DNA of 64,000 bases from a virus. The DNA lies in IMG/VR virus record IMGVR_UViG_3300033148_002122, positions 1 to 64,000 of that record. One strand, 5' to 3'. Below the pieces are notes generated by a model. It was not told where the DNA came from. It did no database searches and saw only the letters and a program-made list of their open reading frames with translations. Within the stretch, counting starts at the first letter, position 1, and each line of letters begins with the position of its first letter. The position numbers were made by a program, and so were the translations under genes. Positions 851-64,000 of this stretch are shown in pieces.

Positions 851-1846
851 ATGGAATTAACAAAAATAAAAAGGAAATTCACGGTTATAGTCACTGGTGT
901 TACAGGCTTTGCAGGCAGTCACTTGGCTGAATTGTTGTTAAGACACTCTGAGTACTCAGTTGTGGGTACAACCCGATGGCGGTCCAGTCCAGACAATATT
1001 AAGGACTTGTTAGCCCAGGGGTTAACGCTATACCCCTGTGATATAACAGACGCCTCAAGCGTAAGAGAGTTGGTACAAAGGTATCACCCTGATATGATAT
1101 ACCACTTGGCTGCCCAGAGCTTTGTACCCGATAGTTGGAATAGCCCAGCGCACACACTGACTACAAACATAATTGGTGAACTTAATTTGTTTGAGGCAGT
1201 TAGATCCAAGACTATTAATGACTCACAACCTGGGTGTAAAATTTTGGTAGCTGGTTCGTCAGAAGAGTATGGGCTGGTTAATCCGAATGAAACTCCTATA
1301 CTAGAGACAAATGAGTTGCGTCCAATGAGTCCCTACGGTGTTTCAAAAATTGGTCAGGACTTTCTGGCCTATCAATACTGGCAAAGCTATGGCATAAAAG
1401 TAGTTAGAGCCAGGGCGTTTAATCACACTGGACCCCGTAGGCATCCAGCCTTTGTATGCTCTAACTTTGCAAAACAAATAGCAATTATAGAAAAAATCGG
1501 ACACGGCGTTATCCACGTTGGTGACTTAACAGCGGTTAGAGACTTTACGGACGTTCGTGACACCGTAAGGGCATACCACTCGCTAATGCTGTTGGGGCAG
1601 CCAGGAGAAGTCTACAACATCTGCTCTGGCGTCGGTCATACTATCTCCTCAGTGCTTACTACTCTGATGCAAATGTCTTCGGCAGAAATAGATACTGAGA
1701 TAGATGAGTCTAGGCTCAGACCCTCTGACGTACCTATTCTGATTGGTGATTGTCAAAAACTTAAGTCCGTAACAGACTGGGAACCACTTACTCCGTTTAA
1801 ACAAACACTTGAGGATCTTCTAAACTATTGGAGGGAAAGGGTATGA
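851..1846 (+). CDS. GDP-mannose 4,6-dehydratase / GDP-4-keto-6-deoxymannose reductase (Gmd/Rmd family SDR)
   Basis: GVTGFAG Rossmann motif, HLAAQSFV, GSSEEYG, SPYGVSK (YxxxK), RAFNHTGP, RDFTDVRD, RPSD. ATG at 851 follows GGAGG (track start 794). GSSEEYG and NHTGP look more Rmd-like than Gmd-like. Confidence 0.88.
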   Translation: MELTKIKRKFTVIVTGVTGFAGSHLAELLLRHSEYSVVGTTRWRSSPDNIKDLLAQGLTLYPCDITDASSVRELVQRYHPDMIYHLAAQSFVPDSWNSPAHTLTTNIIGELNLFEAVRSKTINDSQPGCKILVAGSSEEYGLVNPNETPILETNELRPMSPYGVSKIGQDFLAYQYWQSYGIKVVRARAFNHTGPRRHPAFVCSNFAKQIAIIEKIGHGVIHVGDLTAVRDFTDVRDTVRAYHSLMLLGQPGEVYNICSGVGHTISSVLTTLMQMSSAEIDTEIDESRLRPSDVPILIGDCQKLKSVTDWEPLTPFKQTLEDLLNYWRERV

Positions 1847-2070
1847 AACGATTAACTCCGCTCAGAGAATTTAATGACGCACGATCTGCACAGGCTTTTC
1901 GAGGAAGTTGGAGGATAGGAGAAAAACAATTGTGTGTAAATGGATTGGCCTGTCCAGAATGTGGTGAGGAACTATATGACGTTAATCCAGACATGGTACT
2001 AACCAGTATGCCTCCTCAGTTAAATGTAGCGTGTACTAACTGTGTATGGAAAGGCTTTAGGTATAAGTAA
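1843..2070 (+). CDS. small zinc-ribbon protein
   Basis: CPECG...CTNC; ATGA overlap with the upstream stop. Confidence 0.6.
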   Translation: MKRLTPLREFNDARSAQAFRGSWRIGEKQLCVNGLACPECGEELYDVNPDMVLTSMPPQLNVACTNCVWKGFRYK

Positions 2071-62200: not shown

Positions 62201-64000
62201 GGAACAACTAGGTTGTTCGAAGCCGCTGCCGAATTTGGTTATTCAAATCTTGAGGACATGGTTGGGGATGATGGTACAGGGAGTGATTACTACAAATCTA
62301 GATATTGCCACCCAGGTGATCAACTTCTTGTTTATTGCTTAGGCCCATCAAGAACATGGGGTGACTGGTCAGATGACTCGTTTGGTGAAGGTGAACGCAA
62401 CTTACAACTTATTGCTGAGTTAGCAGAGAAAAGAAATGCATCGGTTGGTGTAGGGTATGCCGTAACCCCCTTTGATGGTGGAACAAGGCTTAGTGCTTTG
62501 TTTGATCCTAATGATGTAGATGACAGATGGCCTGGGTACATAAGTCCTAATACTTATATGACTAACCACACAGACGGGGATATAGTTTATGAGGGAAATG
62601 CTAGTTTAGCTACTGATTCTCCAGACACTGGTGACTACAGATATTATATTTTTTCAAAAGATGTATGGGAAAACTGGAGTAGTAGTGGTATTGAGTTCGC
62701 ATTTCCTTCAGCAAGAAAAGAAACAGAAGTAACATTCACTGTTTCTAGTTATTCTTTTTACTATGGAAGCATTATTATATACGGGACGTTATCACCAGAA
62801 ACGGACTTTGATATTGATCCTGCAAATGGTGAAACATTCTATAATGATTCAACAGCAGTTCCACCACTTAGCCCCGGAGGTTTACCACATGGTTCTGGGT
62901 GGTATCTTGAAGGAAGTAGAGCCAGAGAAATATACCCAATACGCTATATAAAAATGTATGGCGAAGGCGACACAGATAGAGGCAAAGTAGAATACGTATC
63001 AATAACAGATAACTACATAGATAGCGATACTCTGTATGAAGGATTGGTTCTTAACTTTAAATATTTATCATTAAATGTTGGAAATACTAATGCGCTTGAA
63101 CCTCATAAAGTAAGAACTATTGAGGATATTCCATATCCAAAACCAGATATTAATGTTGGTAAAAATACGTGGCATACTACCTTTGATCCCTATGTAGATG
63201 CTACCGCTGTTTATGATAGCATAGAAAAATCAATTCAATTTTATATTGGGAATATTAGAAACCCAATGGGTATCACAGATATTGAAATCTATAGGTATGA
63301 CGGAGAGAATCCAACAGATTCAGACTGGCCTGAAAGAGCTACCTATACACTTGGCACTGATTCTACATCCATACACACATTCAAAGAAGTTTCGAACTAC
63401 TTGCCTATAACTAGCTATAAAATTGTTCCTATTTCTGTCTATGGAGTTGAATCGTCTGAGCCTTTTTATCTTCTTAACATTACAACTAATCCGATTAACC
63501 CACCAAGTGTAGAAAGTGGTGGTGTATTCGCAAATTTTGCGTCACTAATTAATATGTCTCATGGATATGATAATGACATAATTTTTAACGTTAGAAAAAA
63601 TGGTACTAACTATGCTACTGGAGTATTATCATCCAATAAGATAACTACGTTCTATGATATTTTTTGGCAAGAGGGTGATACATACGATATAAGAGCATAC
63701 TACGATGGTTATTGGAGTGAGTACTCCGTAGTAATCGAACCTGTATGGGCAGGTATACAGACCGCTAATACTAACTTAGGTATTGAAGATGTGTATGATC
63801 ATGTAACGCTTGGTAATAGTACGTGGGATAATTATTTTGATGTTAACTTTAACCTACAGTTTACTGCCGCTACTAATAAGTTAGGAACATTTAAAATAGG
63901 CCAACCCGTGTGGTCTGGAACTGTTGGTGGATTCCAGTATAGAACAGTTGTTGTTCCTCTTTCCTACGGAGGTAAAACACAAGAATCTGCGTTAGCGGTT
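59300..64000 (+). CDS. 3'-truncated giant virion-type protein with subtilisin-like (S8) domain and FN3-like domains
   Basis: Read by hand: ATG at 59300, no stop to the window end (1567 codons), so absent from the track. Motifs GSGIGLFHPDLG, HVMKVFGIVGG...GVAPG, VPAFGNGG, GQSCATPAAAG, FGYGRPD. Confidence 0.8.
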   Translation, partial: MNKLSFKLSRRIDINRDSQFIKCVETHSLDNTIYYEFSYTESSSEYSWAYRYIEVKDSNVEISINKLLEFSLIESASIVNTNDEMLDISDNVIAGRCLRTCSGLAGQYWDAADIWGAGYAQAVTDSSAMFCFNLVAGCAGTSSSSYITGLVDSTVTFIAGFRDPFYTPEQLTDSTHYLERAVYFPTRSVAPNHSLQRYKVSGVESRVEANILYIAAELTEDDDTVLSSTDALYNLGIRSGIVSDGIPNTIFIAGICHHLHWSANSIDGLCIDADYEKGEMFIPGTSVRSNSLGWNIDGVQGKSVGIGQSDSTVNVGFEFDGLTSYPVERSRMVFGSQEGSGIGLFHPDLGGDGDSTHGVYLYNLGLNSVFVNNARKILYGDDLLGYTGQGYSREHVEDWSIDAGSSFHVMKVFGIVGGRWNDSGTLGVAPGCHMDPECVRGYIFELVDYGVADVYSYSLESSYLSDYGTLTFYDVVGDTGAYPIGSVANSLTAGYAASNDAWYLVPAFGNGGHYINFDSEIIGISAFSVWDGTSPVYSHGEALTFVSPVPQLIAGPYYDPNGATLFDSHSYGEYAGQSCATPAAAGGMLLLKEARPELSYFEAKNVLASSCRKFPDMTAESENWHHQFGYGRPDMLAAFNTDTTETPCAPPRGLIVDGVGRDTLLFRWTNPHYKHFEKVKILRKDALDPGTYDTFANLHSLSIEEQPEGIGQEESLEWVDTITTSPLGLSVTDSTYFGKVQLYFDFWGSSSYISTFSHNGMAEWNTTYYDLISAPGDTTSNDFPTGMPEVYFNYGGTAHAAMYVIDSTGDWFGYFIDHIRTTCEYFYDQGNPLYGIFLDDFANVISWSYIVGPEKTKTYDRNGAQNDSSHIFITCPELWSYYMASDYYPIWGDDNWEEMTKTEQKVVTIQWYYGVMNVQMESLEQQVWDIINNYCIPDGKMIVNGIGRRLDEIGGGHPTYGNWVPRYGTTRLFEAAAEFGYSNLEDMVGDDGTGSDYYKSRYCHPGDQLLVYCLGPSRTWGDWSDDSFGEGERNLQLIAELAEKRNASVGVGYAVTPFDGGTRLSALFDPNDVDDRWPGYISPNTYMTNHTDGDIVYEGNASLATDSPDTGDYRYYIFSKDVWENWSSSGIEFAFPSARKETEVTFTVSSYSFYYGSIIIYGTLSPETDFDIDPANGETFYNDSTAVPPLSPGGLPHGSGWYLEGSRAREIYPIRYIKMYGEGDTDRGKVEYVSITDNYIDSDTLYEGLVLNFKYLSLNVGNTNALEPHKVRTIEDIPYPKPDINVGKNTWHTTFDPYVDATAVYDSIEKSIQFYIGNIRNPMGITDIEIYRYDGENPTDSDWPERATYTLGTDSTSIHTFKEVSNYLPITSYKIVPISVYGVESSEPFYLLNITTNPINPPSVESGGVFANFASLINMSHGYDNDIIFNVRKNGTNYATGVLSSNKITTFYDIFWQEGDTYDIRAYYDGYWSEYSVVIEPVWAGIQTANTNLGIEDVYDHVTLGNSTWDNYFDVNFNLQFTAATNKLGTFKIGQPVWSGTVGGFQYRTVVVPLSYGGKTQESALAV

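Follow-up and report, generated by a model that had tools for sequence, protein, structure and literature searches.

An Asp-Ser-Thr excess in the fibre and tail-tip proteins of an uncultured phage fits a virus-made sugar coat with a three-residue address

The genome considered here is that of an uncultured phage of 117 kb (G000), which has one sister (G001) and more distant relatives (G002 and G004); the window comprises the first 64,000 nucleotides of its record. It encodes a set of sugar enzymes together with fibre, tail-tip and other proteins, many of which carry the tripeptide Asp-Ser-Thr (DST) or Asp-Thr-Thr (DTT) (Table 1).

Table 1. Sugar enzymes, DST carriers and proteins lacking the motif in the window (expected counts are for DST)
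Feature	Position	Strand	Evidence and motif counts
GDP-mannose 4,6-dehydratase-like SDR	794..1846	+	Pfam PF16363, E 4e-77; 0 DST
Borderline GT2-like glycosyltransferase	7398..8201	+	Pfam PF00535, E 6e-5, 23.5 bits vs cut-off 23.3
Second nucleotide-sugar SDR (epimerase/dehydratase/reductase)	8194..9192	+	Pfam PF01370, E 8e-43
135-aa DST carrier inside sugar-gene cluster	11025..11432	+	4 DST vs 0.12 expected; 0/500 shuffles
GT2 glycosyltransferase	11447..12289	+	Pfam PF00535, E 1e-19
Weak class-I methyltransferase	12289..13092	+	Pfam PF08241, E 2e-4, 22.3 bits vs cut-off 21.2
Cupin, mannose-6-phosphate-isomerase-like	18702..19160	+	Pfam PF07883, E 6e-9; PF01050, E 5e-6
423-aa DST carrier	19730..21001	+	2 DST + 1 DTT vs 0.14 expected
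190-aa DST carrier, first gene of terminase-portal block	25428..26000	+	2 DST + 1 DTT
479-aa beta-helix-like DST carrier	26431..27870	+	4 DST + 1 DTT vs 0.27 expected
1426-aa fibre-like repeat protein	28304..32584	+	66 DST (0 DTT) vs 2.97 expected
116-aa protein	32584..32934	+	1 DST + 1 DTT; orthologue in G001
GT4-type (Glycos_transf_1) soluble glycosyltransferase	33460..34521	+	Pfam PF00534, E 9e-17
Portal protein, non-carrier control	34514..36868	+	PHROG 2739, E 3e-7
188-aa protein just upstream of putative capsid gene	39266..39832	+	3 DST vs 0.06 expected
Putative major capsid protein, non-carrier	39851..40852	+	Gene order and conservation only; 0 DST
Putative major tail (tube) protein	43926..45320	+	By gene order only; 2 DST + 2 DTT
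Tape measure protein, non-carrier control	46423..52692	+	Pfam PF10145, E 1e-32
1023-aa tail-tip protein with coiled-coil stalk	52704..55775	+	12 DST + 5 DTT vs 0.93 expected
197-aa carrier	55785..56378	+	5 DST + 1 DTT vs 0.12 expected
966-aa tail-tip or fibre protein	56396..59296	+	7 DST + 4 DTT vs 0.48 expected
1711-aa tail or fibre protein	59300..64000	+	8 DST + 2 DTT vs 0.80 expected

Both SDRs, the cupin and, weakly, the methyltransferase named by the first-pass annotation are recovered by family searches, but its four glycosyltransferases are reduced to three by Pfam, with no family match for a fourth in the window. The dehydratase-like ORF 794, which scores 160.9 bits against NCBIfam gmd, under the cut-off of 415, may function in nucleotide-sugar supply; ORF 7398 has no NCBIfam match, whereas orthologues of the GT2 enzyme 11447 (54% identity, at the end of the record) and of the cupin are found in G001. 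The GT4 enzyme 33460, encoded within a block of fibre genes between terminase and portal, lacks a hydrophobic segment. It lies far under the cut-offs for its nearest families, BshA, MshA and, weakly, SdgA/B; with 24 and 18 bits for SdgB and SdgA, against cut-offs of 800, it does not belong to the latter two. Among NCBIfam models, no curated family that names a protein substrate was passed. The genome further encodes transferases of GT1 type (genome position 80866) and GT9-like type (89996), and enzymes identified as a Ugd-like dehydrogenase, a PfkB kinase, a DegT aminotransferase, a B12 radical-SAM enzyme and an RmlD-like reductase. No multi-pass membrane protein fit to serve as flippase, polymerase or oligosaccharyltransferase was found in the genome, hydrophobic segments are absent from the transferases and the DST carriers, and the carriers also lack signal peptides.

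A program count reproduced all the DST and DTT counts made by eye in the first-pass annotation, including the 66 DST of its ORF 28316, which starts at an internal ATG in the frame of ORF 28304. This protein consists of a 14-residue repeat, D-S-T-(G/A)-S-Y-S-x-x-(L/I/V)-x4, present in about 65 copies. Every one of the 65 units has D, S and T, and S+4, Y+5 and S+6 are nearly invariant; 57 of the 64 intervals between DST sites equal 14 residues. Its homologues in G001 (ORF 17412; 15 DST + 6 DTT) and P0008 (28 DST) also carry the motif. In the stalk of ORF 52704, DST likewise recurs every 14 residues, and hydrophobic residues predominate at repeat positions 3, 6, 10 and 13 (0.82-0.86), so that D-S-T falls at heptad positions e-f-g; its orthologues in G001 and P0010 have 8 DST + 1 DTT and 13 + 2, respectively. 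A different arrangement is seen in ORF 55785, with three DST near the N-terminus at 8-residue spacing and 4 of 6 sites kept in G001. All 5 homologues of ORF 56396 detected among 1.84 billion representatives are DST-rich, several sites being kept in 4 of 4 sequences. ORF 59300, which includes a weak subtilase-like stretch, continues past the window to genome position 64435, and its residues 692-1080 form a domain in common with ORF 19730 (4 DST in the G001 orthologue) and the paralogue of the latter, ORF 104535, which has an N-terminal hydrophobic segment. Among the smaller carriers, ORF 11025 has no Pfam or PHROG family match; ORF 25428 keeps 2 of 3 sites in G001; and ORF 26431 keeps 4 of 5 and shows a weak match to Pfam Beta_helix (E 2e-4). 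ORF 39266, for which no family or PDB match was found, is a putative decoration protein by position only, and in the putative tail tube protein the DST excess alone is not significant (p = 0.072). Further DST-rich orthologues are P0008, P0010 and P0013-P0015.

The excess is not explained by composition. Among 53 plus-strand ORFs of at least 100 aa, each shuffled 500 times with composition preserved, and with ORF 28304 left aside, 53 DST were observed against 6.96 ± 2.63 expected (maximum 17 in 2000 shuffles); DST ranks first of 8000 tripeptides (z = 17.6, against 6.3 for the runner-up). Control tripeptides are not comparably enriched (observed/expected: SDT 11/6.9, TSD 1/6.9, STD 7/6.9, TDS 13/6.9, EST 3/5.9, NST 4/5.1, DSS 11/8.8, DTS 4/6.9). 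For individual ORFs, none of the 500 shuffles reached the observed count in 11025, 26431, 28304, 39266, 52704, 55785, 56396 and 59300. The motif is strict, D-[S>T]-T, with only D before, only S (~7x) or T (~3x) in the middle, and only T after. The first-pass proposal that selection acts on the tripeptide holds: the 53 sites are encoded by 23 different 9-mers, with an AGY serine codon in 22 of 53 (general AGY share, 0.37), and such varied codons indicate selection at the protein level. The carriers are, as had been suggested, mostly non-homologous by sequence comparison, and no wider sequence context shared around the sites was found. The share of DST sites close to alignment gaps is only weakly raised (39% vs 30-34%).

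Zero DST counts were confirmed for the tape measure (2089 aa, as in the 2114-aa G001 orthologue), the portal (and 6 of 6 homologues, P0002-P0007), the putative capsid protein, PolA and ORF 9522, and single DST for TerL, the integrase and ORF 22033. Ten small ORFs, assigned to head or neck by gene order, also have none; together with portal and tape measure, their summed expectation is ~1.5, or ~12 at the carriers' 7.7-fold rate. The division into exposed and internal proteins follows mostly gene order, with family support for TerL, portal and tape measure only; the putative capsid protein matches PHROG 16565, a family of unknown function, with no PDB match found. The 80 non-structural ORFs hold 3 DST against 3.9 expected; only some of the late proteins show the excess.

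The excess is a property of one clade. Across whole genomes, with repeat proteins removed, DST numbers 58 against 11.5 expected in G000 and 43 against 7.9 in G001, where it is the top tripeptide in both and falls on the same orthologues, but 6 against 6.3 in G002; no clear excess was found in G002 or G004. Between G000 and G001, 55 of 113 sites (49%) are kept, compared with 9.4% of tripeptides overall and 20.5% of the remaining D/S/T triplets, with S and T swapping in mid-motif; 28 sites are shared, and 35 and 25 are lineage-specific. The block with the beta-helix protein, the DST-repeat fibre and GT4 33460 occupies the terminase-portal interval in G000 and G001 only. The GT4 gene is thus co-inherited with the excess: G001 has an orthologue of 44% identity in the corresponding position, whereas G002 and G004 lack the block and no match above the cut-off was found in G002-G005. 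This outcome of the comparison with relatives called for in the first-pass annotation agrees with its proposal, but the co-occurrence represents a single evolutionary event.

These observations point, at close to even chances in our estimate, to D-[S>T]-T as a sequon for phage-encoded O-glycosylation in the cytoplasm. We infer that the motif would be a short linear acceptor read in the host cytoplasm by a soluble phage enzyme, most likely a glycosyltransferase, with GT4 33460 as leading candidate for the initial step, the transfer of a sugar onto the hydroxyl of the middle Ser or Thr. The glycan might then be extended by GT2 11447, the borderline GT2 7398, the GT1-type 80866 and the GT9-like 89996, from nucleotide sugars made and tailored by dehydratase 794, SDR 8194, the Ugd-like dehydrogenase, the DegT aminotransferase, the RmlD-like reductase, the PfkB kinase, the cupin, a methyltransferase and the B12 radical-SAM enzyme. 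At least 12 fibre, tail-tip, tail-tube and head-associated proteins would thereby be coated with glycan, most densely the 1426-residue fibre, with one site per 14-residue rung.

Several observations count against this reading. Non-structural proteins do not avoid DST; the putative capsid protein, the bulk of the particle surface, is devoid of it in both G000 and G001, as is ORF 9522 in G000; and in G000 a single DST is present in each of ORFs 64976 (1698 aa) and 70072 (2240 aa), with 7 DST + 2 DTT in the G001 orthologue of ORF 64976. GT2 genes (G004, G005) and GT9 homologues (G002, G004) are present in phages that show no clear excess, and the sugar genes could instead serve host-envelope or other glycans. 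Furthermore, DST in the repeats is embedded in longer conserved units, D-S-T-G-S-Y-S and the heptad stalk, so that part of the count could be structural.

The last point leads to an alternative that we regard as possible but rather unlikely, namely, that D-S-T is a favoured turn or cap, such as an Asx/ST-type turn closing a beta-strand, a helix cap or an outer stalk position, which spread in the fibre and tail-tip folds of the clade, the sugar genes having another purpose. Residues -1, -2 and -4 from DST are more often hydrophobic (0.56 vs 0.40), as after a beta strand, a distant stalk homologue, P0011, has D-T-(A/S/T) at the same stalk period, and one site of the 39266 family always has D and T, relatives that lack the excess included (site 1 reads DVT, DFT, DVT and DTT in the orthologues; site 3, DTT, DGT, DST and SST). 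However, a structural role leaves the clade specificity unexplained: in G002 and G004, orthologues of the same fold have no excess and show DNT, DGS, DVT or DFT at the orthologous columns (DNT and DGS in the tail tube protein), and the fold can therefore do without DST. Moreover, the near-equivalent turn triplets NST, DSS, DTS, DGT and EST are not enriched, and the one triplet occurs in a beta-type 14-residue repeat, at outer coiled-coil positions and in a short-period N-terminal linker.

The statistics call for a clade-specific, trans-acting selective agent but do not name it, and for many of the clade's ORFs no family is known. Thus, the motif might be recognized by something other than a phage glycosyltransferase, through phosphorylation, acylation or a phospho-sugar or ester cross-link, by a host modifying enzyme or an assembly chaperone, or as a metal-binding element or a direct ligand in adsorption; we consider this improbable, given that the subset of ORFs scanned yielded neither a protein kinase nor any other family of protein-modifying enzymes and that the clade-specific fibre block has a single enzyme gene, for a glycosyltransferase. 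The first-pass annotation had linked the motif to the general O-glycosylation sequon of Bacteroidota, a link that is not supported. Strong Shine-Dalgarno sites precede 70 of 116 ORFs (16.8 ± 3.9 in controls); such use is uncommon in Bacteroidota and in the phages that infect them, which argues against a Bacteroidota host, and the host is probably not a member of this phylum. Modification of the carriers by a host system of this type is very improbable, even though both D-S-T and D-T-T match D-(S/T)-(A/I/L/V/M/T), the motif given in the cited excerpts (PMC8550257, PMC12871550). In one of these, the third residue is most often L, I or V and only non-cytoplasmic proteins are modified (PMC12871550), whereas here DSA, DSL, DSI and DSV do not exceed expectation and the carriers have neither signal peptide nor membrane segment.

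Sequon-directed glycosylation by the phage, which we favour, would share features with several known systems. As far as the excerpts describe it, the Bacteroidota system also marks many unrelated proteins at a three-residue motif with Asp before a Ser or Thr, Ser being preferred, and does not tolerate Glu for Asp, in line with the EST count here (3 against 5.9); it differs in that the phage motif strictly requires Thr in third place, the proteins are cytoplasmic, phage-made and without export signal, and there is no candidate flippase or oligosaccharyltransferase in the phage genome. Mycobacteriophages Che8, Corndog and Myrna glycosylate their virions with phage-encoded glycosyltransferases (Freeman et al. 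2023, via PMC12363180, PMC12894461, PMC12582341). Common to those phages, as excerpted, and this one are the phage's own transferases, structural proteins as proposed substrates and a transferase gene in the structural region; the mycobacteriophage glycoproteins, however, are capsid and tail-tube proteins, whereas here the putative capsid protein lacks the motif and the carriers, as candidate substrates, are mainly fibre and tail-tip proteins, and the excerpts mention no short acceptor motif distributed across numerous virion proteins. Serine-rich and Ser-Asp repeat adhesins are O-glycosylated in the cytoplasm by GT4 enzymes (GtfA/B, SdgA/SdgB). There, as here, the gene for a soluble GT4 enzyme adjoins that for a Ser/Thr-rich repeat protein with Asp beside Ser, but the substrates are long repeat tracts rather than a tripeptide scattered over many proteins. 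The capsid of chlorovirus PBCV-1 is glycosylated at atypical sites by virus-encoded cytoplasmic transferases, a precedent for virus-encoded machinery without membranes, unusual acceptor sites and a large sugar toolkit, although in that giant virus of eukaryotes the glycans are N-linked to the major capsid protein, without a D-S-T motif.

What the first-pass annotation had noticed is confirmed as a real, protein-level excess of DST in part of the late proteins, and the interpretation given there is supported in part. A glycan shield or host mimicry, the roles proposed there for the DST sites, is speculation. The excess, lying beside the phage's own sugar-transferase genes, fits a virus-made sugar coat that would be directed to its proteins by a three-residue address.

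Among all 8000 tripeptides, Asp-Ser-Thr (DST) shows the strongest over-representation in the window when the repeat fibre ORF 28304, itself with 66 copies, is set aside (z 17.6, against 6.3 for the runner-up). The other 52 ORFs hold 53 copies, compared with 6.96 +/- 2.63 in composition-preserving shuffles (maximum 17 in 2000), and DTT forms a second tier (18 observed, 6.0 expected). The first-pass annotation had counted the motif by eye, and all of its counts were reproduced; the proposed enrichment relative to control triplets was likewise borne out, with SDT, TSD, STD, TDS, EST, NST, DSS, and DTS all flat. 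Observed and expected counts are 3 and 6.8 for DSA, 7 and 6.5 for DSV, 10 and 8.1 for DSL, and 9 and 7.1 for DSI, with the same picture in the DST-rich sister phage, G001. In a per-position scan, Asp alone is enriched before, Ser (about 7-fold) or Thr (about 3-fold) in the middle, and Thr alone after, again in both genomes, and the 133 sites share no wider context, apart from a modest rise in hydrophobic residues at -1, -2, and -4.

The codons are as varied as had been noted, the 53 sites being encoded by 23 different 9-mers, with AGY serine in 22 of them, and the excess is present in coding frames only, which together place the selective pressure on the peptide. A motif at the DNA level is ruled out on the same grounds, given also that AGY/TCN use follows general usage. 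The carriers, i.e., the ORFs over which the DST excess is spread (11025, 19730, 25428, 26431, 28304, 39266, 43926, 52704, 55785, 56396, and 59300), are of different kinds, in agreement with the earlier impression: all-against-all BLASTP found them mostly unrelated to each other and linked only 19730 to part of 59300, to 104535, and to 32584, so that a shared homologous module was rejected as the general cause. One domain does occur three times, at window 19730-21001, within 59300-64000 (residues 692-1080), and at genome 104535-105530 on the minus strand (L018:535-1530); the last copy, which lacks DST, is a protein of 331 aa whose N-terminus has a hydrophobic segment.

The motif appears in three kinds of structural setting. 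ORF 28304 is a string of some 65 repeat units, each 14 residues long, in which D, S, and T are invariant and are followed by G/A, S, Y, S, and L/I/V, a pattern that suggests one strand and one turn per unit; a lectin-like domain was sought in this protein, with no PDB match at E <= 1, no Pfam match, and no usable lead from protein-atlas look-ups. The stalk of ORF 52704 has hydrophobic residues at positions 3, 6, 10, and 13 of its 14-residue unit; this 4-3-4-3 heptad spacing places D-S-T on the outer positions e-f-g. In the other carriers, the sites are scattered singly, often behind a hydrophobic stretch, and ORF 55785 has three of them eight residues apart near its N-terminus. That the same triplet recurs in all three argues for a linear recognition motif, not one structural element. 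Proximity to indels, used as a proxy for exposure, gives a weak signal (39% versus 30-34%). A distant homologue of the ORF 52704 stalk (P0011, 819 aa; 29% identity over 21%) has a signal-peptide-like N-terminus and about 14 units of a 14-15-residue repeat with D-T-(A/S/T), including 6 DTA where 0.31 are expected; the protein is possibly exported and fibre-like, with a repeat that would match the Bacteroidota sequon.

The source record is linear, 116,752 bases long, and about 95% complete by CheckV, the window being its first 64 kb; genes lie on the plus strand up to about 80.9 kb and mostly on the minus strand beyond. The genes that family searches could name within the window are listed in the table. 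The DST carriers yielded no Pfam or PHROG family, and the putative capsid, decoration, and tube proteins, without family or PDB support, are labelled by gene order only. Of the four glycosyltransferases originally attributed to the window, three have family support, one of them borderline, whereas the fourth was not found; ORFs 13043 and 22644 have no family or PDB match. Elsewhere in the genome are further sugar enzymes (a Ugd-like dehydrogenase, a GT1-type transferase, a PfkB kinase, a GT9-like transferase, an RmlD-like reductase, and a DegT aminotransferase), a B12 radical-SAM enzyme, and NAD synthase. Immediately behind the last large tail gene, and sharing its strand, come four genes (genome 76805-80873; L016:12805-16873), namely, a 213-aa ORF with a weak glycosyltransferase match (HpnI model, E 2e-5), the Ugd-like dehydrogenase, the B12-binding radical-SAM enzyme, and NAD synthase. 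A nucleotide-metabolism set, comprising a DprA-like protein, dCMP deaminase, an IMPDH/GMP-reductase-like enzyme, and ThyX, occupies window 4645-7228 and genome 93856-94527. Next after the M15 peptidase comes a protein of 95 aa that has three hydrophobic segments, and the two are likely an endolysin-holin pair.

Genes of the window named by family search (positions in the window; strand as found)
Feature	Start	End	Strand	Evidence
GDP-mannose-dehydratase-like SDR	794		+	family search
GT2 (borderline)	7398		+	family search
SDR, second	8194		+	family search
GT2	11447		+	family search
Methyltransferase (weak)	12289		+	family search
Integrase	14091		+	family search
SSB				family search
PolA	15589		+	family search
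M15 peptidase	17974	18693	+	family search
Cupin	18702		+	family search
TerL	23557		+	family search
HNH nuclease	32934	33467	+	family search
GT4-type transferase	33460	34521	+	family search
Portal	34514		+	family search
Tape measure	46423		+	family search

Over the whole genome, no DST excess is seen outside 19.7-64.4 kb and ORF 11025. The 34 ORFs at 19.7-76.8 kb other than 28304 contain 51 DST against 7.4 expected, and the remaining 80 ORFs contain 3 against 3.9, i.e., the motif is not avoided in non-structural proteins, which neither helps nor hurts the sequon reading. Among the late proteins, the tape measure, the portal, the protease/scaffold-like ORF 37537, the putative capsid protein, and small neck/connector ORFs are free of DST; their summed expectation is about 1.5 (the sum of per-ORF values) but would be about 12 at the rate of the carriers, so that the split between tagged and untagged late proteins is real. 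The rule that outside means tagged has exceptions: TerL has one site, which is kept in G001, the very large ORFs 64976 and 70072 have a single DST each, and the spike-like ORF 9522 has none, as first reported. ORF 9522 (window 9522-11000, 492 aa) does contain 5 D-[ST]-[AILVMT] sites against 1.6 expected (p 0.018) and has a weak pectinesterase-like N-terminal stretch (E 0.002). For the protein of about 1700 aa at genome 64976-70072 (L016:976-6072), with its 1 DST, the orthologue in G001 (ORF 50971-56379) has 7 DST and 2 DTT; motif load on one orthologue can thus differ strongly between sister phages.

Relatives of this phage are rare. Only six portal homologues were found among 5.8 billion clustered proteins, and a search with the portal alignment led to seven viral loci. 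The closest, G001, is a 59-kb fragment that is syntenic throughout, with a portal 47% identical to that of the genome under study; the more distant G002-G005, with portals about 32% identical, have the head and tail core in common and differ in their tail-tip genes. Single-protein scans of viral contigs with the putative capsid, portal, and TerL gave no close relatives, megablast of 20 kb against cultured phages and tblastn of ORF 28304 against a phage collection gave no match, and a metagenome scan with the portal alignment added no new member of the DST clade. DST leads all tripeptides in G001 as well (43 observed and 7.9 expected without the repeat protein of that phage) and falls on the same orthologues, with the tape measure, portal, and capsid again free of it. 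The tail-tube orthologue of G001 (L002:19797-21218) exists as two separate ORFs (201 and 242 aa), owing to a frameshift, a fault in the assembly, or a genuine break. By contrast, G002 has no excess (6 against 6.3, rank 3347), and G004, a partial record (L005, L014, and L015), has a mild one of about 2 sd each for DST (12 against 6.6) and DTT (12 against 5.5); G004 also has two GT2 genes and no GT4 block.

The two sister phages are about 42% identical overall, and 55 of 113 D-[ST]-T sites are kept between them (49%), compared with 9.4% of all tripeptides, 12.3% of polar ones, and 20.5% of other D/S/T triplets. Ser and Thr are swapped in 14 of 56 conserved site-counts, and 35 and 25 sites are specific to one or the other lineage, with no clear rule seen in their counterparts. 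As read from these alignments, the pattern is one of purifying selection plus turnover. Columns occupied by DST in the clade read DNT or DGS in the tube proteins of G002 and G004, and DVT, DFT, or DGT in their members of the 39266 family. ORF 56396, searched exhaustively against 1.84 billion representatives, matched only five homologues, all DST-rich (observed/expected 7/0.38, 5/0.24, 4/0.20, 7/0.66 in G001, and 2/0.05), with several sites kept in four of four sequences. A homologue of ORF 52704 (P0010) has 13 DST against 0.65 expected, and P0008, which is another repeat fibre and has a beta-helix domain at its centre, contains 28 where 1.5 are expected. Given these DST-rich homologues, the trait is that of a small clade comprising no fewer than four or five genomes.

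In both sister phages, six or seven genes stand between TerL and the portal. This block comprises 25428, 26074, the beta-helix protein (26431), the repeat fibre (28304), 32584, a variable gene, and the GT4-type transferase ORF 33460. The variable gene is the HNH endonuclease, between 32584 and the GT4 gene, in the genome under study and an unrelated 199-aa ORF in G001. As in virion glycosylation of the mycobacteriophage type, a transferase is encoded among structural genes, here between the fibre genes and the portal, in an order kept in G001. The same interval in G002-G005 holds three small ORFs, and no match to the GT1 family reaches the cut-off there. When viral contigs were scanned, neither the GT4 alignment nor a double-repeat DNA pattern matched anything but G001. 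The idea that DST enrichment accompanies the glycosyltransferase set holds, as a single evolutionary event, for the GT4 block, which is present in both sister phages and absent from G002-G005; it fails for GT2, with homologues also in G004 and G005, and for GT9, also in G002 and G004, so that these families are not specific to the excess. The GT9-like ORF (genome 89996-91279) was discarded as a TibC/AAH autotransporter heptosyltransferase, its PDB matches being only LPS heptosyltransferases (best E 8e-6), and as a DST-specific enzyme, its 34% identical homologues occurring in G002 and G004, both without clear excess.

The GT4 protein is soluble, 353 residues long, and has a C-terminal GT-B nucleotide-sugar domain (PF00534, 61.6 bits; cut-off 26.4). 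Its nearest families are BshA (the best, 41.8 bits; cut-off 273.7) and MshA, all far below the NCBIfam cut-offs, and it falls outside the SdgA and SdgB families (17.8 and 24.2 bits, respectively, against cut-offs of 800); for such a generic enzyme, the substrate is not readable from sequence. A complex prediction with five ORF 28304 repeat units, run without controls, scored 0.00 and carries no weight on binding in either direction.

The statistics call for a clade-specific selective agent that would recognise D-(S/T)-T in trans. The most economical candidate would be a phage glycosyltransferase, an identification to which we give nearly an even chance. The fuller proposal, which we advance tentatively, is that a small clade of uncultured phages has its own cytoplasmic, sequon-directed O-glycosylation, in which a dozen or more unrelated proteins of the virion exterior would bear a strict D-(S/T)-T code, read by the clade-specific GT4 and then extended with phage-made sugars. 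Modification by phage enzymes would take place in the cytoplasm, on folded or folding proteins, because the carriers lack hydrophobic segments and a crude hydropathy scan of the genome found no multi-pass membrane protein and hence no candidate flippase, polymerase, or oligosaccharyltransferase. Alternatively, the motif could be purely structural, as its embedding in longer repeat units and the D-T-x stalk repeat of P0011 would have it; given a single triplet across three kinds of setting, we regard this as rather unlikely. Recognition of another kind seems to us less probable still.

The literal Bacteroidota system, to which the first-pass annotation had likened the motif, is a separate matter. 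Shine-Dalgarno-like sites precede 70 of the 116 ORFs, whereas control positions give 16.8 +/- 3.9; in 35 cases, AGGAG or GGAGG is present. Such strong use is atypical for Bacteroidota and argues, by general knowledge only, against a Bacteroidota host. As to other hosts, tblastn with TerL gave only distant matches (24-28%) to Bacillus-type phages, and the best 80 of at least 595 RecA matches, a list biased by the choice of peptide pattern, are 57-63% identical and come from several phyla. With Thr strictly required at the third place, carriers that are not exported, and this Shine-Dalgarno use, the link to the Bacteroidota sequon is not supported, and operation of that very system here is highly improbable. 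Its motif, D-(S/T)-(A/I/L/V/M/T), commonly has a hydrophobic third residue, with L, I, and V in the lead according to the available portion of PMC12871550, whereas only DST and DTT are enriched here. The same portion describes a system that modifies non-cytoplasmic proteins once its glycan has been flipped into the periplasm (PMC12871550); the carriers, by contrast, all lack an N-terminal hydrophobic segment in a Kyte-Doolittle scan of the 116 ORFs, a crude measure and not a signal-peptide predictor.

In the literature searched, exclusive of supplementary files, we found no description of sequon-addressed glycosylation of a phage virion, nor any phage glycosylation data in the available portion of PMC12014285. 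Phage virion glycosylation has so far been documented for a few mycobacteriophages, as stated in the accessible part of PMC12363180, the work of Freeman et al. 2023 being cited there and in the corresponding parts of PMC12894461 and PMC12582341. The Bacteroidota system is, in the available text of PMC12871550, the only known motif-driven bacterial O-glycosylation. If true, the cytoplasmic system proposed here would provide the first sequon for O-glycosylation outside Bacteroidota, as well as the first sequon code to extend across the virion proteome of a phage. A three-residue code would make glycosylation sites on phage particles predictable from sequence, would offer a compact pair of tag and enzyme for cytoplasmic glyco-engineering of proteins, and would raise the question of what role a glycan coat plays on fibres and tail tips, e.g., in adsorption, protease resistance, or evasion of recognition.
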